From Escherichia coli (lineage in GTDB: Bacteria > Pseudomonadota > Gammaproteobacteria > Enterobacterales > Enterobacteriaceae), in NCBI RefSeq assembly GCF_013315695.1, contig NZ_CP054356.1: a stretch of DNA of 64,000 nt. One strand, written 5' to 3'. Of this stretch, positions 8,976 through 25,030 are shown piece after piece. A model generated the notes under the pieces. It did not search any database and was not told where the DNA came from. It worked only from the letters and a program-made list of their open reading frames with translations. The position numbers and the translations under genes were made by a program. Position 1 is the first letter of the stretch; every line of letters begins with the position of its first letter.

Positions 8976-8980
8976 ACAAA

Positions 8981-9290
8981 AGATGTCGCCGGGCTCCTCT
9001 TTTTACTGCGCCGGCTGACGCGGCGCGGCAGGAACGCTGCCTGTGGTCAGTGTCCCGCGTCCGGCCGGGCACGGGACGGGCGCTTTTACCGCTCCCGGCT
9101 GGCGTCGGTGACAGTGTACGCCAGCCCGTCGCCCTTTTCTGATGAGCGCCCTTCAAGCCGCTTTCGCGGCATAGCCTTGCCGTCAAAAAGACGACGGCTG
9201 CGGTATTCCACGGTCGGCCTGACCCGTTACCGGGCGCGGTGAACAGCCCACAGGCAGCGGGGAACGGGCGCCACAGGGGCGCCCTCCCGA
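8981..9290 (+). repeat. Leading-region structured repeat, family A copy 1 (Frpo/ssi-like candidate ssDNA promoter)
   Basis: About 310 bp nearly identical to 10288-10598; GC-rich with nested inverted repeats; sits directly upstream of an operon start. Confidence 0.6.
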
Positions 9291-9312
9291 TGCTCCTGTG
9301 AGGATAATTCCC

Positions 9313-10239
9313 ATGCCAAACTGGTGCTCGAATCGTATGTATTTTTCTGGTGAACCGGCACAGATCGCTGAGATTAAACGACTGGCCAGCGGTGCAGTCA
9401 CACCGTTTTATCGCCGCGCCACAAATGAAGGTATTCAGCTGTTTCTGGCCGGAAGTGCCGGACTTCTGCAGACCACTGAAGATGTGCGGTTTGAACCATG
9501 CCCCGGACTGACGGCTGCCGGACGTGGTGTTTTATCGCCGGAGAATATCACGTTCACCCGCTGGCTGAAGCACCTGCAGGACGGTGTACTGCTGGATGAG
9601 CAAAACTGCCTGATGCTGCATGAACTCTGGCTGCAGAGCGGTACTGGACAGCGTCGCTGGGAAGGGTTACCGGATGATGTCAGGGAAACTATCACTGTGC
9701 ATTTCACCGCAAAAAGAGGTGACTGGTGTGACATCTGGGGTAACGAGGATGTATCGGTGTGGTGGAACCGTCTGTGTGACAACGTACTGCCGGAAAAAAC
9801 CATGCCGTTTGACCTGCTGACGGTTTTGCCGACCCGCCTGGATATTGAAGTGAATGGCTTTAACGGCGGTGTTCTGAACGGTGTTCCTTCTGCATATCAC
9901 TGGTATACAGAACGGTATGGCGTGAAGTGGCCTTGTGGGTATGACCTGAATATCAGCAGTCAGGGGGAAAACTTCATTCAGGTAGATTTCGACACGCCGT
10001 GGTGTCAGCCGGAAAGCGACGTTGTTGCAGAATTAAGCCGCCGTTTCGGCTGCACGCTGGAGCACTGGTACGCCGAACAGGGCTGCAATTTCTGTGGCTG
10101 GCAGTTGTATGAGCGCGGAGAGCTTGTTGATGTGCTGTGGGGGGAACTGGAATGGTCTTCCCCGACAGATGACGATGAGCTGCCGGAAGTCACCGGACCT
10201 GCGTGGATAGTCGACAATGTGGCGCATTATGGCGGATGA
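9313..10239 (+). CDS. Hypothetical Trp/Cys-rich leading-region protein (about 308 aa)
   Basis: ORF with SD AGGA upstream of ATG 9313 (track gives alternative GTG 9298); motifs PNWCSNRMYF, WCDIWGNEDVSVWWNRLCDN, GCNFCGWQL; no family recognised with confidence. Confidence 0.6.
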   Translation: MPNWCSNRMYFSGEPAQIAEIKRLASGAVTPFYRRATNEGIQLFLAGSAGLLQTTEDVRFEPCPGLTAAGRGVLSPENITFTRWLKHLQDGVLLDEQNCLMLHELWLQSGTGQRRWEGLPDDVRETITVHFTAKRGDWCDIWGNEDVSVWWNRLCDNVLPEKTMPFDLLTVLPTRLDIEVNGFNGGVLNGVPSAYHWYTERYGVKWPCGYDLNISSQGENFIQVDFDTPWCQPESDVVAELSRRFGCTLEHWYAEQGCNFCGWQLYERGELVDVLWGELEWSSPTDDDELPEVTGPAWIVDNVAHYGG

Positions 10240-10287
10240 AGTATGACGGAGACGGGCGGGCAACCGCCCGTTTCTTTTCCGGTAAAG

Positions 10288-10598
10288 GATGTCGCCGTGC
10301 TCCTCTTTTTACTGCGCCGGCTGACGCGGCGCGGCATAAACGCTGCCTGTGGTCAGTGTCCCGCGTCCGGTGGGCACGGGACGGGCGCTTTTACCGCTCC
10401 CGGCTGGCGTCGGTGACAGTGTACGCCAGCCTGTCGCCCTTTTCTGATGAACGCCCTTCAAGCCGCTTTCGCGGCATAGCCTTGCCGTCAGAAAGACGAC
10501 GGCTGCGGTATTCCACGGTCGGCCTGACCCGTTACCGGACGCGGTGAACAGCCCACAGGCAGCGGGGAACGGGCACCACAGGGGTGCCCTCCCGGTGC
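10288..10598 (+). repeat. Leading-region structured repeat, family A copy 2 (Frpo/ssi-like)
   Basis: Near-identical to 8981-9290; ends just before RBS of methyltransferase gene. Confidence 0.6.
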
Positions 10599-10622
10599 CC
10601 TCTGTAAGAGAAGGAGTTTTGT

Positions 10623-11306
10623 ATGTCCCGTTTTGTCCTCGGTAACTGCATCGATGTTATGGCCCGTATTCCTGATAACGCCATTGATTTCATACTGACT
10701 GACCCGCCGTACCTCGTCGGTTTCCGTGACCGTTCCGGGCGCACCATTGCCGGTGATGTTAATGATGACTGGCTGCAACCTGCCAGCAATGAGATGTACC
10801 GCGTACTCAAAAAAGACGCGCTGATGGTCAGCTTCTACGGCTGGAACCGTGTCGATCGCTTTATGGCCGCCTGGAAACGCGCCGGATTCAGCGTGGCAGG
10901 GCACCTCGTGTTCACCAAAAACTACACATCCAAATCTGCGTATGTCGCGTACCGTCACGAATGCGCTTACATCCTGGCAAAGGGCAGTCCGGCCCGGCCC
11001 CGTAACCCTCTGCCGGATGTGCTGGGCTGGAAATATTCAGGCAATCGTCATCACCCGACGGAAAAGCCCGTTACCAGCCTGCAACCACTGATTGAGAGCT
11101 TCACACATCCGAACGCGATTGTGCTGGACCCGTTTGCAGGCAGCGGCTCAACCTGCGTCGCTGCCCTCCAGTCCGGACGCCGGTATATCGGTATCGAGCT
11201 GCTTGAACAGTATCACCGTGCCGGACAGCAACGACTGGCCGCCGTGCAACGGGCCATGCAGCAGGGGGCCGCGAATGATAACTGGTTTGAACCGGAGGCT
11301 GCGTAA
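10623..11306 (+). CDS. Orphan DNA methyltransferase (N6-adenine/N4-cytosine type, beta-class)
   Basis: Motif IV TDPPY precedes motif I DPFAGSGST; 227 aa; typical leading-region orphan MTase. Confidence 0.85.
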   Translation: MSRFVLGNCIDVMARIPDNAIDFILTDPPYLVGFRDRSGRTIAGDVNDDWLQPASNEMYRVLKKDALMVSFYGWNRVDRFMAAWKRAGFSVAGHLVFTKNYTSKSAYVAYRHECAYILAKGSPARPRNPLPDVLGWKYSGNRHHPTEKPVTSLQPLIESFTHPNAIVLDPFAGSGSTCVAALQSGRRYIGIELLEQYHRAGQQRLAAVQRAMQQGAANDNWFEPEAA

Positions 11307-11528
11307 ATGAACTATGCCGGACACGAAAAACTTCGCGCCGACGTGGCGGAGGTGGCCAACACCATGTGTGACCTTCGGGCCAGGCTGAACGATATGGAGC
11401 ATCGCTGTCGCTTTGATTCCGATGTGCTTGTTGAACGCCTGACACGCCAGACGCTGTATCGCGCCAATCGCCTGTTCATGGAGGCGTATACCGAAATTCT
11501 GGAACTGGATTCCTGCTTCAAAGATTGA
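11307..11528 (+). CDS. Hypothetical small protein (73 aa)
   Basis: ATG overlaps methyltransferase stop (TAAATG); operon context only. Confidence 0.5.
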   Translation: MNYAGHEKLRADVAEVANTMCDLRARLNDMEHRCRFDSDVLVERLTRQTLYRANRLFMEAYTEILELDSCFKD

Positions 11529-11541
11529 GAAGGAGACGAGA

Positions 11542-11976
11542 ATGTACGGAACATGCGAAACGCTATGCCGGGAGCTGGCAGCAAAGTATTCGGGAGACAC
11601 GCCACTGATGCTGGTTATCTGGTCCCCGGAAGAAATTCAGGCCCTCTCTGACGGAATGGATATTGCCCTGACCGATCATGAAATCAGGACTGTCCTGGCG
11701 CGCCTGGAGGACATCCCGGAAGACCAGCGGACTGAATCCGGTATTTCTTCCGGCGTGGCGATGGAGATCATCAATAACGTGAGCGAAAACCGCCAGGTGA
11801 CTGTCCCTGCTGAACTGCTGGCGTCCCTGATTCAGACCGCTGAACAGGCATTGTGGAAACGTGAATGGGCCGCCCGGGATCATGGCCTCGCCGTCCCGGA
11901 ATGCGTCACCCGCCGTCAGGCGGTGGTTAATCAGGTCCGCATCCTGCTGAAAAACAACACACACGAAAACGACTGA
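11542..11976 (+). CDS. Hypothetical leading-region protein, paralog of 13679-14098 (possibly DUF1380-type)
   Basis: Good RBS GAGAAGGAG; shares MY(G/C)T start and R-x-VTVPA-x-LL motif with ORF 13679. Confidence 0.6.
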   Translation: MYGTCETLCRELAAKYSGDTPLMLVIWSPEEIQALSDGMDIALTDHEIRTVLARLEDIPEDQRTESGISSGVAMEIINNVSENRQVTVPAELLASLIQTAEQALWKREWAARDHGLAVPECVTRRQAVVNQVRILLKNNTHEND

Positions 11977-12020
11977 TGTTATCGCCGCCTCCGGGCGGCG
12001 ATACAGGGAGTTCATGAATT

Positions 12021-12791
12021 ATGAATGAAATGCTGAATGCACTGATTTATCGCCACGCCAGCAACCTGTTGCTGGCGCAGGGCTGGCCGGAAGAGACGGA
12101 TGTTGACCAGCGTAACCCGAAGTATCCGGGCTGGATCAGCATTTACGTGCGGCTGGATGCGCCCCGGCTGGCGACGTTACTTATCAAGCGTCACGGCGGC
12201 GTACTGCCGCCGCTCCTGGCCTCTGCCATTCAGAAACTGACCGGAACCGGAGCGGAACTTGTTCTGTCCGGCAGTCAGTGGCAGTCGCTGCCGGTACTTC
12301 CGGCAGACGGAACGCAGGTGTCTTTCCCGTATGCCGGTGAGTGGCTGGCAGAGGACGAAATCAGGGCCGTTCTTGGTGCGGTACGCGATGCAGTATGCAG
12401 TGTCAGTTACCAGGTGGCAGAAGATGCGCGGCGTATCCGTGCGGCGCTGACCACCACCGGTCAGACGTTGCTGACCCGCCAGACGCGCCGCTTTCGCCTG
12501 GTGGTGAAGGAAAGCGATCACCCCTGCTGGCTCGATGAAGACGACGAAAACCTGCCCGTGGTGCTCGATGCCATCCTGAACCGGGGCGCTCGTTTTTCGT
12601 CGGTGGAAATGTATCTGGTCAGTGAGTGTGTGGAGCATATCCTGTCCAGTGGGCTGGCCTGCGATATGCTGCGTATACCGGATGAACCGCCCCGCCGCTG
12701 GTTTGACCGTGGTGTTCTGCGGGAGGTGGTCCGGGAAGCCCGGAACGAAATCCGCAGCATGGCGGATGCCCTGGCAAAAATCCGGAAATGA
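12021..12791 (+). CDS. Hypothetical protein (256 aa)
   Basis: RBS AGGGAG 10 nt upstream; codon usage consistent with neighbours; no family recognised. Confidence 0.55.
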
Positions 12792-12847
12792 TGACGCTGG
12801 CGGGGAAAAATCTCCGCCTTTTCCAGTCGGTCCCCGGAAAGAGCAAA

Positions 12848-13200
12848 AGGATGTCGCCGCAGGCTCCTCTTTACCCGGCCATGTGGGGCATGGCCTTGTG
12901 GGTTTTCAGTTATGTGGCCTCAGCGTCGTGTGCGGGCTGTGCCGTGCCTCCATCGTAGCCGGGCTTCTGCGGGCGGGTTGCAAGGTAAGGTGAACCGCTG
13001 CGGTCACCCGGTCCCTCCTTCCCGTCTGCCGTGATTTTCCGGTCGTTCACCCGCTCAGATTTCGCGGTCTCACCCTTCAACTCCCGTCAGCCGTGCGCGT
13101 CAGGCTGCGGCTTCCCTTGCGCCCTTGCAACCCTGCAGGCCCGGCAAAGATGGAGGCACGGCACCGCCCGGTGTCGCGGAATATGTGAACAACGGAGGAA
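12848..13200 (+). repeat. Divergent family-A-related structured element upstream of klcA
   Basis: Begins with the same AAGGATGTCGCCG..GCTCCTCTTT motif as family A copies, then diverges; GC-rich with inverted repeats. Confidence 0.45.
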
Positions 13201-13206
13201 AACATC

Positions 13207-13632
13207 ATGCAATATGCGAAACCTGTCACTCTGAACGTTGAAGAGTGTGACCGTCTCTCCTTTCTGCCTTACCTGTTTGGCAACGATTTTCTGTATGCCG
13301 AGGCGTATGTGTACGCGCTGGCGCAAAAAATGATGCCGGAATATCAGGGAGGCTTCTGGCATTTCATCCGCCTGCCGGACGGTGGCGGTTACATGATGCC
13401 GGATGGCGACCGTTTTCATCTGGTCAACGGTGAAAACTGGTTTGACCGCACTGTGAGTGCTGATGCCGCAGGTATCATCCTGACTTCCCTTGTGATTAAC
13501 CGCCAGTTGTGGCTGTACCACGACAGCGGGGATGCGGGACTGACACACCTTTACCGGATGCGCGATGCGCAGTTGTGGAGCCACATCGAATTTCACCCCG
13601 AATGCAATGCGATTTACGCGGCACTTGACTGA
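13207..13632 (+). CDS. klcA: Antirestriction protein KlcA/ArdB family
   Basis: 141 aa; size, leading-region position and motifs ([21 protein letters not shown]) consistent with recalled KlcA/ArdB. Confidence 0.65.
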
Positions 13633-13678
13633 TTAACGGACGGGGCGGCGATGCCGCCCCTGTAAAGGAGACGAGAAC

Positions 13679-14098
13679 ATGTACTGTACTGTTAAAGAAA
13701 TTATCCGCGAAGTGCTGGATACAGACGTGCCGGACAGTGAATGCGTTTTTGCCGTGGTGCTGACCCGTGGGGATGTGCGTCACATAGCCCAGGACTGGAG
13801 TCTGACAGACGATGAGCTGGAAACCGTCATGCAGCGGCTGGACGATGCCTTTGAGCATGGTGCTGATGTCAGCATTGTTCACGACGTTGTTCGTGAACTG
13901 ATGGAGGAAAAGCGCGTAAACCGTCTTGTAACAGTCCCTGCGGTGCTGCTGGAAAAAGTGATGGTGATGGCTGGTAGTGAAATTTATCGCCTCCATGCTG
14001 TAGGGAGCGAGAACGGGGGCGACGGTGACGCATTTGTCAGGGAAGAACGTGAGATTATGCGGGTGATGCGTCAGGCGCTGGACGGGGAGAATGGGTAA
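13679..14098 (+). CDS. Hypothetical leading-region protein, paralog of 11542-11976
   Basis: RBS AAAGGAGA; shared motifs with ORF 11542 (VTVPAVLLEKV). Confidence 0.6.
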   Translation: MYCTVKEIIREVLDTDVPDSECVFAVVLTRGDVRHIAQDWSLTDDELETVMQRLDDAFEHGADVSIVHDVVRELMEEKRVNRLVTVPAVLLEKVMVMAGSEIYRLHAVGSENGGDGDAFVREEREIMRVMRQALDGENG

Positions 14099-14289
14099 TG
14101 AATATCAGCAAGGAAACCCGCGAAATTCTGCGTAATTACAGGGCCGTGATTAATGCGCGGCGTCGTGAAATGGGGCAGAAACCGCTCACCACCGCGCAGA
14201 TTGTTGATGAAATATGTGATTTTGTGGTGAATCAGCAGGCTGTTTTCCTCGGTGGTCACTACATCCTTCAGGGCAGCAGGCACAGGTGA
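14098..14289 (+). CDS. Hypothetical small protein (63 aa)
   Basis: ATG overlaps previous stop (TAATG); operon context. Confidence 0.45.
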   Translation: MNISKETREILRNYRAVINARRREMGQKPLTTAQIVDEICDFVVNQQAVFLGGHYILQGSRHR

Positions 14290-14490
14290 TACAGGGCAGG
14301 CGGTGGAGGCCGCCTGTCAGCCCGCGCGAAAACCCCTGGCAGGCTGGCGCCTGCCGGAAGGGAAGCGGGCCACGCTGGCGCGTCGCCCGTTACCCTTCCC
14401 GTTTGTGATGTGTCCGGAATGTTTTTTCCTGATGTTATGTTTCTGTGGTTACTGTTCTTCTTCTTCCTCTTCTTTCCGTTCCTCTCCTGT

Positions 14491-15025
14491 TTATGCCTTT
14501 TCCGGGCGTCCCCCTGGCGGGGCGGGCTGTCGTGAACGGAGCCAGCGGAGCTGTCTCCGCCCTGGCGGGCTTCCATCCCTGACGCAAAACCCCGGGTTTG
14601 CAGCGACCGGAACGGTCGCGCCACCCCTGTCGCGCCGTGGCCTGCGCTCCCGGCATCCCGGCAAAAAGACGCCGGGATGTAAGGAGCAACGCCGTTTCGC
14701 AAACCGCGCTTCACGTCGTTGCAGCGGGTCCCTGCTCATTGCCTGCCGGGTGCCACACACCCGTATGAGTCCCTGTCGCCGGGGGCATAGACAGCCACAA
14801 CCTGCCGCACTGACTGTCCAGGGTAAATGAACAGCCCACAAAATTTTTTACCTAAAACCCGGTAAAAAATTTTGCGTTCTGCCCAGGACAGGTGCGTCAG
14901 GCCGTGGCAGTGATGCCCCTTGCGGCGAAGGTTCTCAAACGGGTGAAGTTCATACCACAGGGAATACAGCAGCAGGTTCCCGCGAAACGTCAAAACCGCG
15001 GCTCCCGAAACTCAACGGGTGATGT
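14491..15025 (+). repeat. Leading-region structured repeat, family B copy 1 (Frpo/ssi-like candidate ssDNA promoter)
   Basis: About 530 bp repeated at 17774-18300 and 23191-23740; contains perfect 14-bp inverted repeat CAAAATTTTTTACC/GGTAAAAAATTTTG (about 14839-14874). Confidence 0.6.
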
Positions 15026-15256
15026 TCTTTAAAAATCAGGATTTATTTCAGGCTCCGGCAATACGCATTTATGTGTTCTGTCAGTCATCCGGCTGGCAGG
15101 TAATGAAAACGCAGGAACAGAAGGAGGAAAACACCGGAAAGCGTCAGATGCAGATATGAAAAAAAGCAGGTCAGGGACCTGCTTAATCCACGCCGTAAGA
15201 ATTGTGCGACCAATTTTGACGGCATTGTTAACCAATTTGTCATAAGGAATCCATTT

Positions 15257-15487
15257 ATGACTGTAAGCATTGTTTCACCTTCCGCAGCGGCTGTAAAGCC
15301 CCGCCGTCATCCCCGTTTCAGACGCGAAGACATCCCCGCGCCGGAACTTGACCCCGTGCTGAAAGCCTTCGGGCGACACATTGCCCGGAGTTTTCGCCGG
15401 GGGCGTGGTGTACACATCCCCGCCATGAAAAACACGGCCTTCGGGCAGGTGCTCCGCACACTCGAACTGAAACGCGCTTTTAACTGA
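15257..15487 (+). CDS. Hypothetical small basic protein (76 aa, Arg-rich)
   Basis: RBS AAGGAA; first gene after family B copy 1; RRHPRFRRED..RSFRRGRG. Confidence 0.5.
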   Translation: MTVSIVSPSAAAVKPRRHPRFRREDIPAPELDPVLKAFGRHIARSFRRGRGVHIPAMKNTAFGQVLRTLELKRAFN

Positions 15488-15538
15488 TGAGGTGAGCCGC
15501 CCCGCGAGGGGCGGCAACAGACGGAAGGAGAACATTTT

Positions 15539-16900
15539 ATGACATTAGCAGCAATCACCATGACCGCCCCGGAAGCCGCCAGCCCTGTGCAGATGTACCG
15601 CGCGACCTACTCACCGGATGACAACAAACTGCGCCTGTATGCCGTGTCACGTCTTGACCCGGAGACGTATAAAAAAGTGCATGATGCCGGTTTTCGCTGG
15701 GCACCAGAACAGGCGCTGTTTGTGGCTCCAGCCTGGACACCGGGCCGGGAAGACGTGCTCCTCTCACTTGCCGGAGAGATTGAGGATGAAGACAGCACGC
15801 TCGCTGAACGTCAGGAAGCACGGGCGGAGCGGTTTACCGGATACAGCGGAAAGCGGGCCAGTGAATCCGCACAGGCACTTGATGAAGTGGAAAGACTGGC
15901 CGCGATGATCCCGCCCGGTCAGCCCATTCTTGTGGGGCATCACAGCGAACGCCGCGCCCGTCGTGATGCGCAGCGTATTGAAAACGGCATGAAACGTGCC
16001 GTGATGCTCTTTGAACGTGCGGAATACTGGGAAGAACGTGCGCGGTCGGCACTGCTTCACGCGAAGTATAAAGAACGTCCGGACGTTCGCTGGCGTCGTA
16101 TCAAAAAAATCGAAGCTGATTTGCGCAAGGCTGAAAAGACCATCGCACAGTCGCAGAAATATCTGACGATGTGGCGGGCTGAATCGCTGGATCTGAATAT
16201 GGCAAAACTCATCAGCAGTCATGACCATATCAGCGCCTGTTTCCCGCTGGATACGTATCCGCGCCCGGCAGAAAAAAGCCAGTATGAAGGAAGTCGATCG
16301 TTATGGTCGGCCCTGGATGATGACATCATCACCACGGAGCAGGCCCGCGAAATTGCGATCCGCTGTCATGAACGGCAGATTCAGCATCAGCAACGCTGGG
16401 TTAACCACTATCAGAACCGCCTGATCTATGAGCGTGCCATGCTGGACGAAAGCGGCGGCGTGGTTACCCGGACACAGGATTTTGAGCCGGGCGGACAGGT
16501 TTTCAGCCGGGGCGAGTGGCTGACCATCATCCGCGTGAACAAAAGCAACGGGGCGGTGAGTTCAGTCACAACGCCGAATTACAGTTTTCTCGGGTACAGC
16601 GGCACGATGAAAGTGACGCCCGATCGCATCACGGACTACAAAGCACCATCGGCAGAAGAGGCTGCCGTCGCCAGCCAGGCCGCGAAGCGTCCGCCGGTAG
16701 TCAACTATCCGGGGGAAGGTTTCCGGGAAATGACAAAGGCGCAGTGGGCCGCCCTGCCCCGGGACTGTAAGGCCGTGCGCAGTGTGGCAGAGACAGAAGA
16801 CCACGGGGCATACCGCTACCGCCGCACAATGGACAATAATTTCCGCCTGGTGAATGTGTATATCACCGACATGAAAATCACGGAAATCCCGCAGAAATAA
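15539..16900 (+). CDS. Hypothetical leading-region protein (453 aa)
   Basis: Strong RBS GAAGGAGA; long ORF with Arg/Glu-rich helical central region; no family assigned with confidence. Confidence 0.65.
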   Translation: MTLAAITMTAPEAASPVQMYRATYSPDDNKLRLYAVSRLDPETYKKVHDAGFRWAPEQALFVAPAWTPGREDVLLSLAGEIEDEDSTLAERQEARAERFTGYSGKRASESAQALDEVERLAAMIPPGQPILVGHHSERRARRDAQRIENGMKRAVMLFERAEYWEERARSALLHAKYKERPDVRWRRIKKIEADLRKAEKTIAQSQKYLTMWRAESLDLNMAKLISSHDHISACFPLDTYPRPAEKSQYEGSRSLWSALDDDIITTEQAREIAIRCHERQIQHQQRWVNHYQNRLIYERAMLDESGGVVTRTQDFEPGGQVFSRGEWLTIIRVNKSNGAVSSVTTPNYSFLGYSGTMKVTPDRITDYKAPSAEEAAVASQAAKRPPVVNYPGEGFREMTKAQWAALPRDCKAVRSVAETEDHGAYRYRRTMDNNFRLVNVYITDMKITEIPQK

Positions 16901-16946
16901 GGTATATCCCCCCGGGAAATCCCCGGGGGATGACGGAGATAATGAT

Positions 16947-17687: not shown

Positions 17688-17722
17688 TCCTGCTACTGCT
17701 ACTGCTACTGCTACTGCTACTG
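17688..17722. repeat. Tandem hexanucleotide repeat (TGCTAC)n, about 5 units
   Basis: CTGCTACTGCTACTGCTACTGCTACTGCTACTG in pyrimidine-rich tract preceding family B copy 2. Confidence 0.8.
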
Positions 17723-17773
17723 TTCTTCTTTTTTCTGCTGCTCTGATTACTGTCTGTTTTGTTGTTCTCCTGC

Positions 17774-18300
17774 TTATGCCTTTTCCGGGCGTCCCCCTGG
17801 CGGGGCGGGCTGTCGTGAACGGAGCCAGCGGAGCTGTCTCCGCCCTGGCGGGCTTCCATCCCTGACGCAAAAACCCGGGTTTGCAGCGACCGGAACGGTC
17901 GCGCCACCCTTGTCGCGCCGTGGCCTGCGCTCCCGGCATCCCGGCAAAAGACGCCGGGATGTAAGGAGCAACGCTGTTTCGCAAACCGCGCTTCACGTCG
18001 TTGCGGCGGGTCCCTGCCCGTTGTTCTGTCCGGTGCCATTCACCTGTTTAAGCCCCTGTCGCCGGGGGCTGATACAGCCACAACCTGCCGCACTGACTGT
18101 CCAGGGTAAATGAACAGCCCACAAAATTTTTTACCCAAAACCCGGTAAAAAATTTTGCGTTCTGCCCAGGACAGGTGCGTCAGGCCGTGGCAGTGATGCC
18201 CCATGCGGCGAAGGTTCTCAAACAGGTGATGGTGAATACCGGAGGGAACAAAAGGCAGGTCCCCGCAAAACGTCAAAACCGCGGCTCCCGAAACTCAACA
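17774..18300 (+). repeat. Leading-region structured repeat, family B copy 2 (Frpo/ssi-like), upstream of ssb
   Basis: Near-identical to 14491-15025 and 23191-23740. Confidence 0.6.
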
Positions 18301-18340
18301 GATGATGGGGGCTGAAAACATCAACAGAAGGAGACACATC

Positions 18341-18868
18341 ATGGCAGTTCGTGGCATTAACAAGGTCATTCTTGTCGGTCGTCTGGGAAAAGATCCGGAA
18401 GTCCGTTACATCCCCAACGGGGGCGCAGTGGCAAACCTGCAGGTGGCCACGTCAGAAACCTGGCGCGACAAACAGACGGGGGAAATGAAGGAGCAGACGG
18501 AATGGCACCGCGTGGTGCTGTTCGGCAAGCTCGCGGAAGTGGCAGGTGAATATCTGCGTAAGGGGGCGCAGGTCTACATTGAAGGCCAGCTTCGCACCCG
18601 TAGCTGGGAAGATAACGGTATTACCCGTTACGTCACCGAAATCCTTGTTAAAACCACGGGCACCATGCAGATGCTGGGGAGTGCACCACAGCAGAACGCT
18701 CAGGTGCAACCGCAGCCTCAGCAGAATGGTCAGTCACAGAGTGCTGACGCGACGAAAAAAGGGAGCGCGAAAACGAAAGGCCGTGGACGTAAGGCTGCGC
18801 AGCCGGAGCCTCAGCCGCAACCACCGGAGGGGGAGGATTACGGGTTTTCAGACGATATCCCGTTCTGA
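18341..18868 (+). CDS. ssb: Plasmid single-stranded DNA-binding protein SSB
   Basis: [23 protein letters not shown].. OB-fold N-terminus and acidic C-terminal tail DDIPF; track ORF extended to upstream ATG 18302. Confidence 0.95.
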
Positions 18869-18886
18869 CTGGCCTGACTGTGATAA

Positions 18887-19159
<273 letters not shown>

Positions 19160-19219
19160 GAGAGGTGCCGGACGGGGATCACGTCCGGCAGACATTAACT
19201 ACACAATAAGGGGATAGTC

Positions 19220-21184
19220 ATGTCAGTAACAAAGTCTGAACCAAAATCTACCCGTAAAGCAAGCCGTAAACCTGCAAAAACGCAGGAAACTGTCCTGTCT
19301 GCCCTGCTGGCGCAGACGGAGGAAGTGAGCGTGCCGCTGGCCTCGCTGATTAAGTCACCACTGAATGTGCGCACGGTGCCGTATTCTGCGGAGTCCGTCA
19401 GCGAACTGGCTGATTCCATTAAGGGGGTCGGCCTGCTGCAGAATCTGGTTGTTCATGCCCTGCCAGGTGACCGCCACGGTGTCGCCGCAGGTGGTCGCCG
19501 ACTGGCAGCACTCAACATGCTGGCAGAGCGTGGCATCATTCCGGCTGACTGGCCTGTCCGCGTGAAAATTATTCCGCAGGAACTGGCGACGGCCGCATCG
19601 ATGACCGAGAACGGTCATCGTCGGGATATGCACCCAGCCGAACAGATTGCCGGATTCTGTGCAATGGCGCAGGAAGGCAAAACACCTGCACAAATCGGTG
19701 ATTTGCTGGGCTATTCACCCCGCCACGTTCAGCGAATGCTGAAACTGGCTGACCTTGCGCCTGTCATCCTCGATGCGCTGGCAGAAGACCTCATCACCAC
19801 CGAGCACTGTCAGGCGCTGGCGCTGGAGAACGACACCGCGCGTCAGGTGCAGGTGTTTGAAGCCGCCTGTCAGTCGGGATGGGGCGGTAAACCGGAAGTA
19901 CAGACCATTCGTCGTCTGGTGACCGAAAGTGAAGTGGCGGTGGCAGGGAACAGTAAATTCCGCTTCGTGGGGGCTGATGCCTTCTCGCCAGATGAACTGC
20001 GCACTGACCTGTTCAGCGACGACGAGGGTGGCTATGTGGACTGCGTGGCGCTCGATGCCGCCCTGCTGGAAAAACTCCAGGCTGTTGCTGAACACCTTCG
20101 GGAAGCCGAAGGCTGGGGATGGTGCGCCGGACGCATGGAGCCTGTCGGTGAGTGCCGTGAGGATGCCGGAACATACCGCTGTCTGCCGGAGCCGGAAGCG
20201 GTGCTGACGGAGGCGGAAGAAGAACGTCTGAACGAACTGATGACGCGTTACGACGCGCTGGAAAACCAGTGTGAGGAATCTGACCTGCTGGAAGCAGAAA
20301 TGAAGCTGATGCGCTGCATGGCGAAGGTCAGGGCGTGGACGCCGGAGATGCGTGCCGGAAGCGGTGTGGTGGTGTCCTGGCGTTATGGCAACGTGTGTGT
20401 CCAGCGTGGTGTGCAGTTGCGCAGCGAGGATGATGCGGCTGACGACGCTGACCGCACGGAACAGGTGCAGGAGAAAGCGCCCGTGGAGGAAATCAGTCTG
20501 CCACTGCTGACGAAAATGTCTTCCGAACGCACGCTGGCAGTCCAGGCAGCACTGATGCAGCAACCGGACAAATCCCTGGCACTGCTGGCATGGACGCTCT
20601 GCCTGAATGTGTTTGGCAGCGGAGCGTACAGTAAACCAGCACAAATCAGCCTGGAATGTAAACATTATTCGCTGACCAGCGATGCGCCATCGGGGAAGGA
20701 CGGTGCCGCATTCCTGGCGCTGATGGCAGAAAAAGCCCGTCTTGCAGCCCTGTTACCGGAGGGATGGTCACGGGATATGACGACGTTCCTGTCACTCAGC
20801 CAGGAGGTACTGTTATCCCTGCTCAGTTTCTGCACCGCGTGCAGCATCCACGGCGTTCAGACCCGCGAGCATGGTCACACGTCACGCAGTCCGCTGGACT
20901 CGCTGGAGAGCGCTATCGGATTCCACATGCGCGACTGGTGGCAGCCGACGAAAGCAAACTTCTTCGGACACCTGCAAAAGCCGCAGATTATCGATGCCCT
21001 GAATGATGCCGGACTGTCCGGTGCTGCGCGGGACGCGGAGAAAATGAAGAAAGGCGATGCCGCTGAACATGCAGAGTTCCACATGAAAGACAACCGCTGG
21101 GTGCCTGGCTGGATGTGTACACCACGTCCACAGGCAGAGACGGAAACCACGGAGTACCGTGACGACCAGGCAGAAGCCGCCTGA
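19220..21184 (+). CDS. ParB-like nuclease domain protein (leading-region ParB/Srx homolog)
   Basis: 654 aa; N-terminal ParB-type region (..GLLQNLVVH.. GGRRLAALN..); conserved position between ssb and psiB. Confidence 0.7.
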
Positions 21185-21252
21185 CCGCCAGTCATAAACC
21201 ATTTATCACGCCGCCCTGCCGGAGACGGGGCGGCAGCAAGGGAGATACCGTG

Positions 21253-21687
21253 ATGAAAACTGAACTGACCCTGAATGTATTACAGACCATGAGCGCACAG
21301 GAATATGAAGATATCCGGGCTGCCGGAAGTGATGAACGTCGTGAACTCACACATGCCGTGATGCGGGAGCTGGATGCGCCGGATAACTGGACGATGAACG
21401 GCGAGTATGGCAGCGAGTTCGGCGGCTTTTTCCCCGTCCAGGTCCGTTTCACGCCTGCCCACGAACGTTTTCACCTGGCGTTATGTTCACCGGGCGATGT
21501 CTCTCAGGTCTGGGTGCTGGTTCTGGTGAATGCCGGTGGTGAGCCGTTTGCGGTGGTTCAGGTACAGCGGCGGTTTGCACCGGAAGCCGTCAGCCATTCA
21601 CTGGCACTGGCGGCGTCACTGGACGCGCAGGGGTACAGCGTCAGTGACATCATCCATATCCTGATGGCGGAAGGAGGTCAGGCATGA
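21253..21687 (+). CDS. psiB: Plasmid SOS inhibition protein PsiB
   Basis: [40 protein letters not shown].. matches recalled PsiB; ATG at 21253 (track starts at GTG 21250). Confidence 0.95.
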
Positions 21688-22403
21688 GCGCACGTTCACA
21701 GGCACTGGTTCCCCTCAGCGCAGAGCAACAGGCCGCATGGCGGGCGGTGGCGGAGACAGAAAAACGCCGCCACCAGGGAAACACGCTGGCGGAATATCCG
21801 TATGCGGGGGCGTTTTTCCGCTGTCTGAACGGAAGCCGCAGGATATCGCTGTCTGACCTGCGATTTTTCATGCCGTCCCTGACCGCAGAAGAACTGCGCG
21901 GCAACCGTTCTCAGTGGCTGTATGCCGTCGATGTGCTGATTGAAACTCAGGGCGAGGTCTGCCTTCTTCCCCTTCCCGGCGATGCAGCAGAGCGGCTGTT
22001 CCCGTCGGTGCGGTTCCGTGTCAGGGAGCGCAGTCGCCACAAATCCGCACTGGTCATGCAAAAGTACAGCCGCCAGCAGGCGAGGGAGGCAGAGCAGAAA
22101 GCCCGTGCGTACCAGGCGCTGGTCGCTCAGGCTGAAATCGAACTGGCATTCCATTCGCCGGAAACAGTCGGAAGCTGGCATGCCCGCTGGAGTGACCGGG
22201 TGGCAGAGCATGACCTGGAAACCCTGTTCTGGCAGTGGGGTGAGCGTTTTCCGTCACTGGCCGGAATGGAACGCTGGCAGTGGCAGGATATGCCGTTCTG
22301 GCAGGTTATTGCGGAAGCCAGTCTTGCAGCAAGAGAGGCCGGTCACGCTGTCCGTGAGATGGAGCGGTGGATGGTGCCGAACAAACTCCGGGAGGCGGCG
22401 TGA
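21684..22403 (+). CDS. psiA: Plasmid SOS inhibition protein PsiA
   Basis: 239 aa immediately downstream of and overlapping psiB stop. Confidence 0.85.
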
Positions 22404-22559
22404 TGCGGCAACAATCGCACAGATTACCCGTAAACAGCCTGAATGAGCGGGTTATTTTCAGGAAAAGTGAGTGTGGTCAGCGTGCAGGTATATGGGCTAT
22501 GATGTGCCCGGCGCTTGAGGCTTTCTGCCTCATGACGTGAAGGTGGTTTGTTACCGTGT

Positions 22560-22640
22560 TGTGTGGCAGAAAGAAGATAGCCCCGTAGTAAGTTAATTTT
22601 CATTAACCACCACGAGGCATCCCTATGTCTAGTCCACATC
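22560..22640 (-). ncRNA. Putative sok/flmB-type antisense RNA (approximate)
   Basis: Inferred from hok/mok architecture: antisense to mok leader; boundaries not determined. Confidence 0.3.
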
Positions 22641-22837
22641 AGGATAGCCTCTTACCGCGCTTTGCGCAAGGAGAAGAAGGCCATGAAACTACCACGAAGT
22701 TCCCTTGTCTGGTGTGTGTTGATCGTGTGTCTCACACTGTTGATATTCACTTATCTGACACGAAAATCGCTGTGCGAGATTCGTTACAGAGACGGACACA
22801 GGGAGGTGGCGGCTTTCATGGCTTACGAATCCGGTAA
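22625..22837 (+). CDS. mok: mok-like modulator-of-killing reading frame overlapping hok
   Basis: 70-aa ORF overlapping the hok frame, as in hok/sok and flm loci. Confidence 0.6.
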
Positions 22838-22841: not shown

Positions 22842-22850
22842 CAACCTGGA

Positions 22851-22872: not shown

Positions 22873-23190
22873 CAGGGCTGATGCTGGTCTGACTGCACTG
22901 AAGCGCCTTTATAAAGGGGCTGCTGGTTCGCCGGTGGCCCCTTTCTCCTTGCTGGCATTGTACGGGCATGAACAACCAGACTGCCAGGAAGGCCGTTTCC
23001 CTCCGGGAACGGGGATGAACGTGCGCCTGCGGCGCCCGTTCTTTTCCCCCGCCTTCTCTGTTTATGACTTACCAGAAATCACATCACCTTCCCTTTGATT
23101 ATTCTCTTTTTCCTCCTGCTCTGACTCTGATTACTGCTCTGACTCTGATTACTGCTGCCCTGATTATTGTCTGTTTTGTTGTTCTCCTGC

Positions 23191-23740
23191 TTATGCCTTT
23201 TCCGGGCGTCCCCCTGGCGGGGCGGGCTGTCGTGAACGGAGCCAGCGAAGCTGTCTCCGCCCTGGCGGGCTTCCATCCCTGACGCAAAACCCCCGGCTTG
23301 CAGCGACTGTTCCGGTCGCGCCGCCTCTGTCGCGCCGTGGCCTGCGCTCCTGGCATCCCGGCAAAAGGCCGCCGGGATGTAAGGCGCAACGCCGTTTCGC
23401 AAACCGCGCTTCACGTCGTTGCGGCGGGTCCCTGCCCGTTGTTGTGTCCGGTGCCATTCACCTGTTTAAGCCCTGTCGCCGGGGCTGATAGTTGATACAA
23501 CCTGCCGCACTGACTGTCCGGTAAAATGAACAGCCCACAAAATTTTTTACCCAAAACCCGGTAAAAATTTTGCGTTCTGCTCCAGACAGGTGCGTCAGGC
23601 CGTGGCAGGTGATGCCCCTGCGGCGAAGGTTCTCAAACAGGTGATGGTGAATACCGGAGGAACAAAAGGCAGGTCCCCGCAAAACGTCAAAACCGCGGCT
23701 CCCGAAACTCAACAGATGATGGGGGCTGAAAACATCAGAT
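23191..23740 (+). repeat. Leading-region structured repeat, family B copy 3 (Frpo/ssi-like)
   Basis: Near-identical to copies 1 and 2; 3' end shares the ssb leader sequence up to about 10 nt before the RBS. Confidence 0.6.
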
Positions 23741-23752
23741 ACAGGAGGAATT

Positions 23753-24049
23753 ATGAGCGCATTTTCTTTTAACACCACTTATCAGCCAACAGGCGATCAG
23801 CAGAAAGACGCAATCGCACAAATCGGGATCATGCAGAATCGTGCTGTTCAGGCAAATCTTGCATATCAGAGCTGCCGGGATTCTGGTGCACTCTTTAAGG
23901 TGCTCCACCAGGTCAATAATGAGCTGCATGACTTACTGGATAGCCTGGAGAATCATACTCCTCTTGTCAGAAAAAACGCTGATGAGTTGATCGCGCTGTT
24001 ACTGCTTTTCACTCGGCAGGTTGGTCAGTCCCGAACTGACCTGATTTGA
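23753..24049 (+). CDS. Hypothetical protein (98 aa)
   Basis: RBS AGGAGG; first gene after family B copy 3. Confidence 0.5.
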   Translation: MSAFSFNTTYQPTGDQQKDAIAQIGIMQNRAVQANLAYQSCRDSGALFKVLHQVNNELHDLLDSLENHTPLVRKNADELIALLLLFTRQVGQSRTDLI

Positions 24050-24159
24050 TGGTCCTTCCCCTCGGAATTGTTGTCTTTTTGTTAACGATAACCGAGGGGG
24101 GATGATATTAAGCGAAAAAACTTTTATTAATTTTATGCCTTCATAAAGGAGTTACTGTT

Positions 24160-24981
24160 ATGCGATTAGCTTCCCGTTTTGGTCGATATAATTCTATTCG
24201 CCGTGAGCGCCCGTTAACGGATGACGAATTAATGCAGTTTGTTCCATCTGTCTTTTCTGGTGATAAACATGAATCCCGGAGTGAGCGTTATACATATATC
24301 CCAACCATCAATATCATCAATAAGTTACGTGATGAAGGTTTCCAGCCATTCTTTGCCTGTCAGAGTCGGGTTCGTGATTTGGGACGCCGCGAATACAGTA
24401 AACATATGTTACGTCTTCGCAGGGAAGGGCATATTAACGGGAAAGAAGTTCCTGAAATTATCCTGCTTAATTCACATGATGGTTCATCCAGTTATCAGAT
24501 GATCCCAGGAATTTTTCGTTTTGTCTGCACAAATGGCCTGGTGTGTGGGAATAATTTTGGCGAAATCCGCGTTCCACATAAAGGTGATATTGTCGGGCAG
24601 GTTATTGAGGGAGCGTATGAAGTGCTCGGTGTCTTTGATAAAGTCACTGAAAATATGGAGACAATGAAAGAGATACATCTTAACAGTGACGAACAACATT
24701 TATTTGGCAGAGCTGCATTGATGGCCAGGTACGAAGATGAAAATAAAACGCCAGTGACGCCAGAACAAATAATTACTCCCCGCCGTTGGGAGGATAAACA
24801 GAACGATCTCTGGACAACCTGGCAGCGGGTTCAGGAGAATATGATAAAAGGTGGATTATCGGGGCGAAGTGCCTCCGGTAAAAATACCAGAACAAGAGCC
24901 ATTACAGGCATTGACGGTGATATCCGAATCAACAAAGCATTATGGATGATTGCCGAACAGTTCAGGGAGTGGAAGTCATGA
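24160..24981 (+). CDS. Conserved leading-region protein (DUF932-like)
   Basis: 273 aa; conserved position next to orf169/oriT in F-like plasmids; family name from memory only. Confidence 0.5.
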   Translation: MRLASRFGRYNSIRRERPLTDDELMQFVPSVFSGDKHESRSERYTYIPTINIINKLRDEGFQPFFACQSRVRDLGRREYSKHMLRLRREGHINGKEVPEIILLNSHDGSSSYQMIPGIFRFVCTNGLVCGNNFGEIRVPHKGDIVGQVIEGAYEVLGVFDKVTENMETMKEIHLNSDEQHLFGRAALMARYEDENKTPVTPEQIITPRRWEDKQNDLWTTWQRVQENMIKGGLSGRSASGKNTRTRAITGIDGDIRINKALWMIAEQFREWKS

Positions 24982-25030
24982 TAATATAAGTAAAGCCCCG
25001 AAAAATTTTTCGGGGCTTTACTTATATTAT
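24981..25030. terminator. Perfect 50-bp palindrome (bidirectional terminator candidate) between convergent genes
   Basis: ATAATATAAGTAAAGCCCCGAAAAA / TTTTTCGGGGCTTTACTTATATTAT. Confidence 0.65.

Follow-up and report, generated by a model that had tools for sequence, protein, structure and literature searches.

Six structured repeats in the leading region of an F-like plasmid as probable single-stranded DNA promoters of three known classes

The 64-kb stretch of DNA analysed here (the window) is from an F-like (MOBF/MPF_F) plasmid, the leading region of which (8.9-25 kb) shows > 98% identity to hundreds of sequenced plasmids. Six long repeats in this region are very probably (probability about 0.88) single-stranded DNA (ssDNA) promoters of three classes known from F and the IncI plasmid pESBL. 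Observed in this analysis were the repeats with their strand geometry, folding and homology, covariation in both class 1 and class 2 and, in the latter, a -10 that is mismatched and conserved. The idea of six operons with ssDNA promoters is already known and the finding confirms known biology. In pESBL, six operons are headed by such promoters, with starts mapped by 5' RACE, and classes 1 to 3 are conserved in F (Wen et al. 2025, PMC12672017). Four such promoters have been shown experimentally in F, and the function of these classes has been demonstrated by experiment in both plasmids (PMC9849209; PMC12672017; bioRxiv 10.64898/2026.01.09.698686).

The F nic sequence GTGGGGTGTGGTGCTTTT is matched exactly on the minus strand at 25870-25887 (0.08 matches expected by chance); a preliminary description of this DNA had also assigned nic to the minus strand. 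By comparison with the F oriT, the nick itself would fall between GTGGGGTGT and GGTGCTTTT. On this sequence match, the minus strand is the nicked, transferred strand (T-strand), and it would thus be the template for all plus-strand genes. Between parC and oriT, roughly 20 protein genes are supported, all of them on the plus strand. The earlier claim that this holds for every one of more than 20 genes needs two exceptions: an annotated 59-aa 'hypothetical' inside hok/sok and an antisense sRNA (AS-pc01) are on the minus strand. Gene annotation was taken from the RefSeq record of a 99.8%-identical plasmid. The features are as follows.

8978-9293, minus: A1, class 3 (ssp3-type), extra copy (repeat D3/D7; fold -98.7 kcal/mol, z -6.6)
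9313-10239, plus: module 1, DUF1281 protein, 308 aa (RefSeq annotation; phrog_37043 'unknown function'; no NCBIfam match)
10255-10279, plus: intrinsic-terminator-like hairpin GGCGGGCAACCGCCCG then TTTCTTTT, end of module 1 (sequence inspection)
10284-10598, minus: A2, class 3 (ssp3-type) (fold -96.4 kcal/mol, z -5.8)
10623-12791, plus: module 2, DNA methyltransferase (M.EcoGIX homologue; 10623-11306), orf73 (11307-11528), DUF1380 (11542-11976), orf256 (12021-12791)
12800-12825, plus: terminator-like hairpin GGCGGGGAAAAATCTCCGCC then TTTTCC, end of module 2 (sequence inspection)
12846-13206, minus: A3, class 2 (ssp2-type), upstream of klcA/ardB (fold -102.7 kcal/mol, z -4.6; 88% to F ssp2 and the pESBL klcA promoter)
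13207-14289, plus: module 3, KlcA/ArdB-type antirestriction (13207-13632), DUF1380 (13679-14098), orf63 (14098-14289) (RefSeq annotation)
14443-15040, minus: B1, class 1 (Frpo/ssi), third copy, without counterpart in F (repeat D1/D2/D4/D5; fold z -12.0; 80% to F ssiD)
15161-15262, minus: AS-pc01 antisense sRNA, overlapping the orf76 start (Rfam RF02875, 79.4 bits, at the gathering score)
15257-17510, plus: module 4, orf76 (15257-15487), DUF3560 protein (15539-16900), class I SAM methyltransferase (16947-17510) (RefSeq annotation)
17726-18323, minus: B2, class 1, equivalent of F Frpo2/ssp1b (fold z -10.3; 87% to F ssiD; colinear with F upstream of ssb)
18341-22403, plus: module 5, ssb (18341-18868), DUF905 (18920-19159), ParB-like YfjB-type (19220-21184), psiB (21250-21687), psiA (21684-22403)
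22509-22837, plus: hok/sok (flm-type) toxin-antitoxin locus (Rfam sok RF01794, 88.9 bits; Hok CDS in RefSeq annotation)
23143-23737, minus: B3, class 1, equivalent of F Frpo1/ssp1a (fold z -7.4; 84% to F ssiD; colinear with F upstream of ygeA)
23753-24981, plus: module 6, ygeA-type orf98 (23753-24049), ygeB-type DUF932 protein (24160-24981) (RefSeq annotation)
24978-25033, no strand: perfect 28+28-nt palindrome, terminator-like, end of module 6 (inverted repeat I3, 100% complementary)
25870-25887, minus: oriT nic region (exact match to the F nic sequence)

Folding of the T-strand in sliding 300-nt segments over all 64 kb gave exactly six clusters below -75 kcal/mol, namely A1, A2, A3, B1, B2 and B3; the same screen (< -75 kcal/mol per 300 nt) was used by Wen et al. 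(PMC12672017). When the minus strand was folded, as the preliminary description had proposed, all six elements formed long imperfect hairpins (z -4.6 to -12.0), and no shuffled sequence was as stable. Among the A elements, dG ranged from -96 to -103 kcal/mol, with z between -4.6 and -6.6; the B intergenic regions, folded whole, gave -192 to -239 kcal/mol, with z between -7.4 and -12.0. The B hairpins are more stable on the T-strand than on the plus strand by 7-13 kcal/mol and contain 9-11 G.T wobbles on the former versus 2-6 on the latter. The A elements fold almost equally well on the plus strand, so for classes 2 and 3 strand specificity does not follow from energy alone. A consensus-like sigma-70 promoter was found on the plus strand of none of the six elements, and a linear scan of the expected arms gave no hexamer pair with ≥ 8/12 matches.

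The six repeats lie essentially where they had been described, the family B coordinates having been set 48 nt inside the units with the same spacing (3283 and ~5415 nt). The repeats are real, but they do not fall into two families as had been described; by homology the elements are assigned to three published ssDNA promoter classes: B1, B2 and B3 to class 1, A3 to class 2, and A1 and A2 to class 3. The element at 12846, which had been regarded as a diverged copy of the other A repeats, is of class 2 and shares with family A only a 29-nt edge motif (AAAGGATGTCGCC..GCTCCTCTTT); the remainder is a different element. Promoter boxes expected in the stems were recognizable as TTGCAA and TACGAT in class 2, while the class 1 -10 is weak and class 3 has a candidate -10 only.

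The family B units are ~600 nt long, with a piecewise identity of 74-100%, and are flanked in every copy by simple tandem repeats. When compared with F Frpo, as had been suggested earlier, they are 80-87% identical to F ssiD/Frpo (ColIb ssi2/ssi3 were also matched), and the T-strand of B2 and B3 folds into the same imperfect hairpin of ~320 nt as that of F Frpo. B3, upstream of ygeA/ygeB, and B2, upstream of ssb-psiA, have the same positions as F Frpo1 and Frpo2 (ssp1a/ssp1b; originally ssiD; Masai & Arai 1997; Couturier et al. 2023, PMC9849209) and are colinear with them over ~600 nt. The Frpo hairpin of B1 (14694-15011) has a -35-like TGGACA (14820-14815), followed by TGn and CTGTCT in an internal loop; that of B2 (17976-18294) has TGGACA (18103-18098), followed by TGn and CTGTAT, also in an internal loop. 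In B3 (hairpin 23395-23707) the -35-like hexamer is CGGACA rather than TGGACA. The class 1 -10 is only a weak hexamer after TGn, within the internal loop. Compensatory changes occur in 9/84 pairs (23 cells vs 9.9 expected), giving the class 1 hairpin moderate backing from covariation, and one G.T pair is invariant across seven diverse class 1 sequences.

Class 2 is known from ssp2 of F, upstream of yfgB/ardB, and from the klcA and ardA promoters of pESBL (PMC12672017; bioRxiv 10.64898/2026.01.09.698686), and had previously been listed as candidate Frpo'4 (Samuel et al. 2024, PMC11541004, supplementary file 4). Like these, A3 lies upstream of a KlcA/ArdB gene and has the same branched hairpin with an invariant GCCGTG...CACGGC basal stem (12933-12985 with 13123-13170), which includes a 32-nt inverted repeat of its own (12933-12964/13139-13170). 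The class 2 layout is TTG.AT, a helix of ~15 bp with a 4- to 6-nt bulge, then TAnnnT, the T, A and T of which are invariant in 11 sequences with the mismatched positions within. On the non-template arm of A3 (T-strand) are a -35 TTGCAA (12983-12978) and a -10 TACGAT (12957-12952), two positions of which are mismatched. The double-stranded equivalent on the plus strand is TTGCAA (13125-13130), 15 nt and AAAGAT (13146-13151); across class 2, the duplex form has AAAGAT or TTTTAT instead at the -10 position. Unlike in the F and pESBL elements, the helix between -35 and -10 in A3 has been exchanged for a different, still paired sequence, and the bulge is on the non-template arm, with a spacer of 20 nt, rather than on the template arm as in other class 2 members, where (as in F and pESBL) the spacer is 15 nt. 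Covariation strongly backs the class 2 hairpin: compensatory changes affect 23/66 pairs, slid controls gave 2-6, and 0/500 shuffles matched on all five measures.

Class 3 is known from ssp3 of F and from the promoter of M.EcoGIX in pESBL (Wen et al. 2025); ssp3 is of equivalent promoter strength (bioRxiv 10.64898/2026.01.09.698686). A2 lies upstream of the orthologous DNA methyltransferase gene. It is identical at 380/383 positions (99.2%) to the pESBL region upstream of M.EcoGIX, where 5' RACE has located the start site (Wen et al. 2025, PMC12672017), and 95.8% identical to F ssp3. The second copy, A1, shows 89-90% identity to A2 and equally to the M.EcoGIX promoter of pESBL and to ssp3 of F; as repeats, the two family A units (8978-9293 and 10284-10598) show 95-97% mutual identity. 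A1 adjoins parC, carries the shared 29-nt motif at its left edge (8978-9006) and heads the DUF1281 gene, which in pESBL is preceded by a different, class-2-like hairpin. The main hairpins are at 9035-9259 (A1) and 10341-10564 (A2). A candidate -10, GACACT, lies within 9056-9045 in A1, where it is mismatched, and within 10362-10351 in A2; no -35 was found in either element. All class 3 copies compared are 89-99% identical and so are unsuited to conservation or covariation analysis.

Known early functions had been claimed for several of these modules, and SSB, PsiB and PsiA (NCBIfam PRK13732, PRK13701 and PRK13704) and the module 2 methyltransferase (PRK13699, 2e-147) were recovered by NCBIfam, as was KlcA/ArdB by annotation. 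The inclusion of hok did not stand: the hok/sok locus has its own promoter-like sites (22474, 22740) and an antisense RNA, and is thus not evidence of an early single-strand-driven function; no hairpin element is found at its head. The F homologue of the module 3 antirestriction gene, yfgB, is under ssp2 control (bioRxiv 10.64898/2026.01.09.698686), and early expression of the F homologues of the module 6 genes depends on Frpo1 (PMC9849209). Compared with F, the plasmid has two additional modules, A1-DUF1281 and B1-orf76-DUF3560-methyltransferase. The DUF1281 gene is missing at this position in both F and NR1, whereas module 4 is present in NR1 but not in F. The module 4 methyltransferase gave weak Erm/KsgA-like NCBIfam matches; DUF3560 and the module 2 genes other than the methyltransferase matched only PHROGs of unknown function. 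In all, ten leading-region ORFs other than those for SSB, PsiB, PsiA, the module 2 methyltransferase, KlcA/ArdB and Hok had no NCBIfam match and only 'unknown function' PHROGs; the earlier count was at least nine unassignable ORFs. AS-pc01 has a promoter-like site (15297-15269) and a terminator (15184-15164) on the minus strand.

The Frpo/ssi-type single-strand promoter reading of the preliminary description is supported by strand geometry, folding and homology to validated elements. The minus strand would enter the recipient 5' end first, from nic at ~25878, so that the leading region would be the first to be single-stranded. Each element may then fold as a long imperfect hairpin on the entering strand, the arm nearer the T-strand 3' end supplying the non-template -35 and -10 and the opposite arm the template. 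RNA polymerase would exit via the hairpin base, transcribing into the plus-strand genes. Mismatches and G.T wobbles would give better promoter bases in the hairpin than in the duplex, and hence conversion to double-stranded DNA would turn the promoters off. Transcription from ssDNA, start sites, shut-off on conversion, priming and roadblock activity are all to be expected from published near-identical elements. A1 (driving DUF1281) and B1 (driving orf76-DUF3560-methyltransferase), which have no directly characterized counterpart in F, may be active by analogy.

It is unlikely that the main action of the elements is on the DNA itself, as priming (single-strand initiation) signals or replication roadblocks, with downstream transcription secondary. 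Frpo, isolated originally under the name ssiD, yields an RNA that primes DNA synthesis in vitro (PMC7690428), and in vivo ssp1/Frpo transcripts prime conversion; ssp2 is a roadblock that stalls complementary-strand synthesis in F, halting the replisome at the stem base (bioRxiv 10.64898/2026.01.09.698686). A homologue of F ssiE, a further ssi, is present at 25095-25283, and the left ~260 nt of every B unit, to which no role is assigned, are as conserved as the hairpin. However, all six pESBL elements have mapped start sites, and each element here immediately precedes an operon and is correctly oriented for it, with the invariant -10-like TAnnnT in class 2. Both roles are compatible, and a DNA-level role as sole function is improbable.

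The repeats are most unlikely to be passive products of duplication or recombination, or ordinary double-stranded promoter/terminator regions, without any single-strand-specific function. Since A1 and A2 flank the DUF1281 gene that is missing here in NR1 and F, recombination has given rise to one or both copies; A2 and A3 are each closely preceded by an intrinsic terminator, and the tandem repeats beside the B copies also fit such an origin. Nevertheless, stems have been kept by compensatory changes across Escherichia, Citrobacter, Edwardsiella, Enterobacter, Yersinia and an insect-gut element, conserved G.T wobbles are specific to the transferred strand, the elements have no consensus duplex promoter, and folding this strong occurs at only these six sites in 64 kb. 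Least probable of all is that the ~100-aa 'hypothetical proteins' annotated by RefSeq (about 8949-9242 and 10236-10547) are genuine products of the A elements. These ORFs are annotated in many records, and for most of the element A1 and A2 have their frame in common, but their starts are not equivalent (the first lies within the parC repeats and the second overlaps the DUF1281 stop codon), long ORFs easily arise at the 67-69% G+C of the A elements, and what lies there is an almost perfect hairpin with the sequence of a mapped promoter.

The ssDNA promoter arrangement closely parallels zygotic induction in IncI1 pESBL/ColIb-P9 (ssi1-3; Bates et al. 1999; Wen et al. 2025), where there are likewise six hairpin-headed modules with the transferred strand as template. 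The gene sets overlap in the methyltransferase, klcA, ssb, psiB and psiA. The plasmid described here has an IncF/MOBF rather than an IncI/MOBP backbone, lacks the ardA module and has a make-up of 3+1+2 elements of classes 1, 2 and 3, versus 3+2+1 in pESBL. Hairpin promoters or origins active on single-stranded DNA also include the early promoters of phage N4 and the sso of rolling-circle plasmids. These are analogous only: they share the dependence on the fold of one strand, but have unrelated sequences and work with a different polymerase or in a different context.

The stretch from 8.9 to 25.1 kb is a widespread one. It matched at least 5000 plasmid records, and in at least 804 a single place covered at least 80% of the query; among the matches listed, the best were ~72-kb E. 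coli plasmids with 99.8 to 99.9% identity, typed MOBF/MPF_F. Since Rfam also detected the traJ 5' UTR/FinP, CopA, two sok loci and pHK01-type antisense RNAs in the window, the DNA can be assigned to an F-like plasmid, and it is useful as a map of an IncF leading-region type that is very common (known from at least 800 plasmid sequences). Gene order was taken from the annotation of a 99.8%-identical record and from NCBIfam.

Gene order and transfer origin of the leading region
Minus strand: parM-parR, followed by parC
Plus strand, first part: DUF1281, DNA methyltransferase, orf73, DUF1380, orf256, KlcA/ArdB-type antirestriction protein, DUF1380
Plus strand, middle: orf63, orf76, DUF3560, class I SAM methyltransferase, SSB, DUF905
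Plus strand, end: 654-aa ParB-like protein, PsiB, PsiA, hok/sok, orf98 (ygeA-type), DUF932 (ygeB-type)
Minus strand, after DUF932: lytic transglycosylase gene, followed by oriT and traM
25870-25887, minus strand: exact match to the F nic-region sequence GTGGGGTGTGGTGCTTTT

The position of the cut inside GTGGGGTGTGGTGCTTTT is taken to be that of F. Because this sequence lies on the minus strand, that strand is the one to enter the recipient, led by its 5' end and running from ~25.9 kb to 9 kb, and this transferred strand (T-strand) is the template for every plus-strand gene of the leading region. The geometry proposed in the preliminary description, with nic on the minus strand and the T-strand as template, is thus borne out by the exact match and by the gene strands.

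The same description placed a long structured repeat at the head of each of six modules, and this was checked by a repeat search, by folding and by a screen of the T-strand. The repeat search returned both sets, the A units (8978-9293 and 10284-10598) being 95 to 97% identical in that search and the B units lying at 14443-15040, 17726-18323 and 23143-23737; the supposed divergent A copy at 12846 has only a 29-nt motif in common with A and carries its own 32-nt inverted repeat. Folding of the minus strand with DNA parameters, as had been suggested, gave a long hairpin in all six elements (z -4.6 to -12.0), and no shuffle was as stable. A homology-independent screen of the T-strand over the whole 64-kb window, run as in Wen et al. 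(PMC12672017; 300-nt windows, DNA energy model, threshold -75 kcal/mol), passed exactly six clusters, which are the six elements, at energies 20 to 44 kcal/mol below the G+C-based expectation. It is clear that the six repeats are real and far beyond chance. Reference sequences were those in supplementary file 4 of Samuel et al. (PMC11541004), with F and pESBL retrieved by accession.

The six elements, the genes behind them and their characterized relatives (percent identity)
8978-9293, minus strand: A1, class 3, before DUF1281; ~89-90% to A2 and to the pESBL (89.5%) and F (88.7%) class 3 copies
10284-10598, minus strand: A2, class 3, before the methyltransferase gene; 380/383 (99.2%) to the pESBL region upstream of M.EcoGIX, 95.8% to F ssp3
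12846-13206, minus strand: A3, class 2, before klcA/ardB; F ssp2 88.6%, pESBL klcA promoter 88.1%, pESBL ardA promoter 83.7%, Frpo'4 (candidate of Samuel et al.) 74-78%
14443-15040, minus strand: B1, class 1, before orf76-DUF3560-methyltransferase; closest to F ssiD, 80%
17726-18323, minus strand: B2, class 1, before ssb-psiA; closest to F ssiD (Frpo2 position), 87%
23143-23737, minus strand: B3, class 1, before ygeA/ygeB; closest to F ssiD (Frpo1 position), 84%

Frpo, originally ssiD of F, is a ~328-nt stem-loop; it re-forms -35 and -10 boxes and attracts RNA polymerase to ssDNA (PMC9849209, PMC7690428). In vivo, early expression in transconjugants needs Frpo1, which precedes ygeA/ygeB, and Frpo2, which precedes ssb-psiA (PMC9849209). 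IncI1 plasmid pESBL has six induced operons, each with a hairpin promoter whose start was mapped by 5' RACE; these promoters fall into class 1 (Frpo/ssi1-3), class 2 (the klcA and ardA promoters) and class 3 (the M.EcoGIX promoter), and F has conserved members of classes 2 and 3 (Wen et al., PMC12672017). Transcription by sigma-70 polymerase from ssDNA only, early and transient in recipients, has been shown for the F and pESBL homologues (PMC9849209, PMC12672017). The F elements have been named ssp1a, ssp1b, ssp2 and ssp3, and ssp2 stalls complementary-strand synthesis until it is melted by UvrD, a roadblock shown for F ssp2 only (bioRxiv 10.64898/2026.01.09.698686). With such promoters a conjugative plasmid can express anti-restriction, anti-SOS and methylation functions ahead of complementary-strand synthesis, and early expression from ssDNA helps resistance plasmids establish in new hosts.

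Against this background the reading of the leading-region elements as Frpo/ssi-type single-strand promoters is supported, with a corrected class assignment. The repeats described as two families are there, but the identities to F and pESBL elements, together with the colinearity of B2 and B3 with Frpo2 and Frpo1 of F over ~600 nt, divide them into the three known classes (class 1 three times, class 2 once and class 3 twice). Because the mechanism, the three classes and the layout of six operons with six hairpin promoters were all published between 1997 and 2026, for F and pESBL, the window adds no new principle. Several of its elements are near-identical to characterized ones, and by this comparison A1 and B1 would at most be additional members.

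Both strands of each element were scanned linearly for TTGACA-N15-19-TATAAT with no useful result, and no consensus-like duplex promoter was found on the plus strand of the six elements. Candidate boxes were identified instead on stem ladders and by sequence conservation among homologues. The expectation that the stems recreate -35 and -10 boxes held for class 2, where boxes (TTGCAA/TACGAT in the window copy) lie in the basal stem; in classes 1 and 3 the candidates are weak or partial.

The class 2 element lies directly upstream of the KlcA/ArdB gene (13207). It was aligned with F, three pESBL regions, an insect-gut element and five elements from a genome scan (Citrobacter werkmanii, C. braakii, Edwardsiella hoshinae, Enterobacter sp. 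Ag1 and Yersinia pestis), giving 11 sequences from six genera and a metagenome, and a consensus fold was computed by RNAalifold. In the resulting branched T-strand hairpin 95% of cells are paired, and compensatory double changes occur in 23 of 66 pairs; none of 500 shuffles reached the observed value on any of five measures, and slid controls gave 2 to 6 pairs. The non-template (3') arm reads TTG.AT, then a helix of ~15 bp with a 4- to 6-nt bulge, then TAnnnT, whose T, A and T are invariant in all 11 sequences. TAnnnT lies in a mismatched stretch just above an invariant CACGGC/GCCGTG basal helix, and two -10 positions are mismatched in the window copy.

Boxes of the class 2 element
12983-12978, minus strand: -35 box, TTGCAA
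12957-12952, minus strand: -10 box, TACGAT

In duplex form the same DNA reads TTGCAA-15-AAAGAT in the window and GTGCAT-19-TTTTAT in F, which argues that a good class 2 -10 box exists only in the folded single strand. The box placement makes the 3' arm the non-template strand, with transcription leaving the base of the hairpin toward the gene; a start near 13158 is predicted. Transcription in the opposite direction, running from the base toward the loop with a non-template 5' arm, was rejected for class 2 on account of the invariant TAnnnT on the 3' arm near the base. In the window copy the helix between the boxes has been exchanged for another paired sequence, with the bulge now on the non-template arm, and the spacer is 20 nt compared with 15 nt in the other members.

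Higher up, where class 2 elements branch, GAAGCCGCAGC and GACCGGGTGA are invariant in all 11 sequences (in the window, for example, at 13103-13113 and 13000-13009, minus strand). Several of their bases pair with each other in the consensus fold. As their conservation exceeds what pairing needs, they may form a putative contact for a protein or for the polymerase.

The comparison with F Frpo that the preliminary description had suggested gives 80 to 87% identity to ssiD for the class 1 copies (alignments of 340 to 356 nt, E 1e-79 to 1e-119); their apical ~90 nt are 74 to 80% identical to ssi2/ssi3 of ColIb. The T-strand hairpins found by folding lie at 14694-15011 (B1), 17976-18294 (B2) and 23395-23707 (B3), with dG of -116 to -138 kcal/mol for segments of ~455 nt and z of -7.4 to -12.0. 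Across seven diverse sequences 94% of cells pair. Compensatory changes occur in nine pairs, a number reached by 29 of 500 shuffles, and there are 23 compensated cells compared with 9.9 expected, reached by none of 500. One G.T pair is invariant among the seven. The B hairpins contain 9 to 11 G.T wobbles on the T-strand and 2 to 6 on the plus strand, and fold 7 to 13 kcal/mol more stably on the T-strand. A TGGACA-like hexamer, its first base mismatched or wobble-paired, is conserved, and ~17 template nt further on TGn and a weak hexamer lie inside an internal loop. The linear scan found no hexamer pair with at least 8 of 12 consensus matches in class 1, and because the match to consensus is weak these boxes are candidates only.

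Within the ~600-nt B units the Frpo hairpin occupies only the right ~320 nt, and the left ~250 nt (14443-14690, 17726-17975 and 23143-23390) are equally conserved, parts being invariant even in pESBL. The left part holds small hairpins such as GCGACCG-loop-CGGTCGC, with loop GAA in B1 and B2 and TTC in F, pESBL and B3, the last with one stem base changed. Each copy is directly bordered on its low-coordinate side by a simple tandem repeat of its own; the corresponding place at F Frpo2 holds a CTT/CCT-rich tract.

Tandem repeats at the class 1 copies
14455-14474: (TTC)x6.7, at B1
17690-17722: (CTGCTA)x5.5, at B2
23116-23166: 18-nt unit, x2.3-3, at B3

In the 300-nt T-strand scan A1 and A2 reached -94.9 and -92.7 kcal/mol (z -6.6 and -5.8). 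In the class 3 stem ladder the non-template arm has a mismatched GACACT close to its base, and no -35 box was found there. Conservation and covariation are inapplicable to class 3, as all copies obtained are 89 to 99% identical. The search for diverged homologues yielded only one near-identical fragment in the phage collection, only copies of at least 90% identity among the plasmid matches listed, and only 97% copies in the genome scan; the class 3 structure accordingly rests on folding and on near-identity to a published element.

Apart from a motif of ~29 nt, AAAGGAnGTCGCC-N-GCTCCnCTTT(TT)AC, classes 2 and 3 are unrelated in sequence. All class 2 and class 3 elements examined have the motif on their upstream (low-coordinate) side, at the very edge: in the window, in F, in pESBL klcA, ardA and M.EcoGIX, and in two insect-metagenome candidates. 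The five further class 2 examples are not independent support, since they were found by searching for the motif itself. A motif scan of IMG/VR gave 120 matches, none homologous to the elements and most of them due to chance in high-GC contigs.

Copies of the 29-nt motif in the window
8978-9006: at A1
10284-10312: at A2
12846-12874: at the class 2 element

The motif may be an undescribed functional part of the class 2/3 cassette. A role as the start of an ORF (ATG TCG CCG...) was rejected, because the class 2 copies of F and pESBL do not keep the ATG. When read-through RNA is folded to minimum energy, GCUCCUC of the motif base-pairs with the downstream gene's Shine-Dalgarno sequence in each of the four class 3 copies; in class 2 the pairing is inconsistent. 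Our hypothesis is that the motif masks this sequence. On double-stranded DNA, in RNA reading through from the preceding operon, the long hairpin would bring GCUCCUC beside the Shine-Dalgarno sequence and hide the translation start, and on single-stranded DNA transcripts begun inside the hairpin would lack the motif and be translated. Such masking would add translational insulation to the transcriptional switch.

Compared with F, the plasmid has two extra modules, A1 with DUF1281 and B1 with orf76-DUF3560-methyltransferase. NR1/R100 has the B1 module, and in it parC directly adjoins one lone class 3 copy, behind which comes the methyltransferase gene, an arrangement that makes the DUF1281 gene between A1 and A2 look like a recombinational insertion. 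The hairpin ahead of DUF1281 in pESBL is a different one, truncated and class-2-like. Intrinsic-terminator-like hairpins precede A2 (10255-10279) and the class 2 element (12800-12825), and a perfect 56-nt palindrome ends the last module.

The count of at least nine unassignable ORFs is upheld by ten that have no NCBIfam match and for which PHROGs gives "unknown function" or nothing. Genes of unknown function directly behind the promoters encode DUF1281, DUF1380 (two copies), DUF3560, DUF905, DUF932 and orf73/256/63/76/98, and are plausible candidates for a role in early establishment or anti-defence. The joint reading, in which the motif is functional and masks the Shine-Dalgarno sequence and, separately, the genes of the A1 and B1 modules act early in new establishment or anti-defence roles, is one we consider unlikely, at roughly one in five.

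The pESBL hairpin upstream of DUF1281 (L004:3200-3470 of the pESBL sequence; T-strand z -5.8) can be aligned with class 2 as a shortened member that has the CACGGC basal helix and TTGCAT-15-TAACGT. The six promoters described for pESBL (PMC12672017) do not include it. The adjoining LexA-box-like CTGTATGTTTATACAG probably belongs to the divergent dinI-umuDC operon.

An AS-pc01 antisense sRNA (Rfam; 15161-15262, minus strand) overlaps the start of orf76, with which module 4 begins, and has on the minus strand a promoter-like site with TG (15297-15269) and a terminator (15184-15164). Module 4 may therefore also be under antisense control.

A homologue of F ssiE (91%) lies at 25095-25283 in minus-strand orientation, flanked by the terminator of module 6 and the transglycosylase gene, and this position excludes ssiE from all six elements. 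A 29-nt sub-hairpin of class 3 (9148-9176 and 10453-10481) is 83% identical to 25226-25254 within it.

Class 2 and class 3 elements 88 to 100% identical to those of the window also occur in several records assigned to non-enterobacterial genomes or MAGs (Streptomyces morookaense, Oscillospiraceae, Oscillibacter, Collinsella, Lachnospiraceae MAG contigs and Acinetobacter idrijaensis), most likely as contaminating or mis-binned fragments of enterobacterial plasmids. One S. morookaense contig (L128) carries instead a 97.6% copy of an Enterobacter-type class 2 element.
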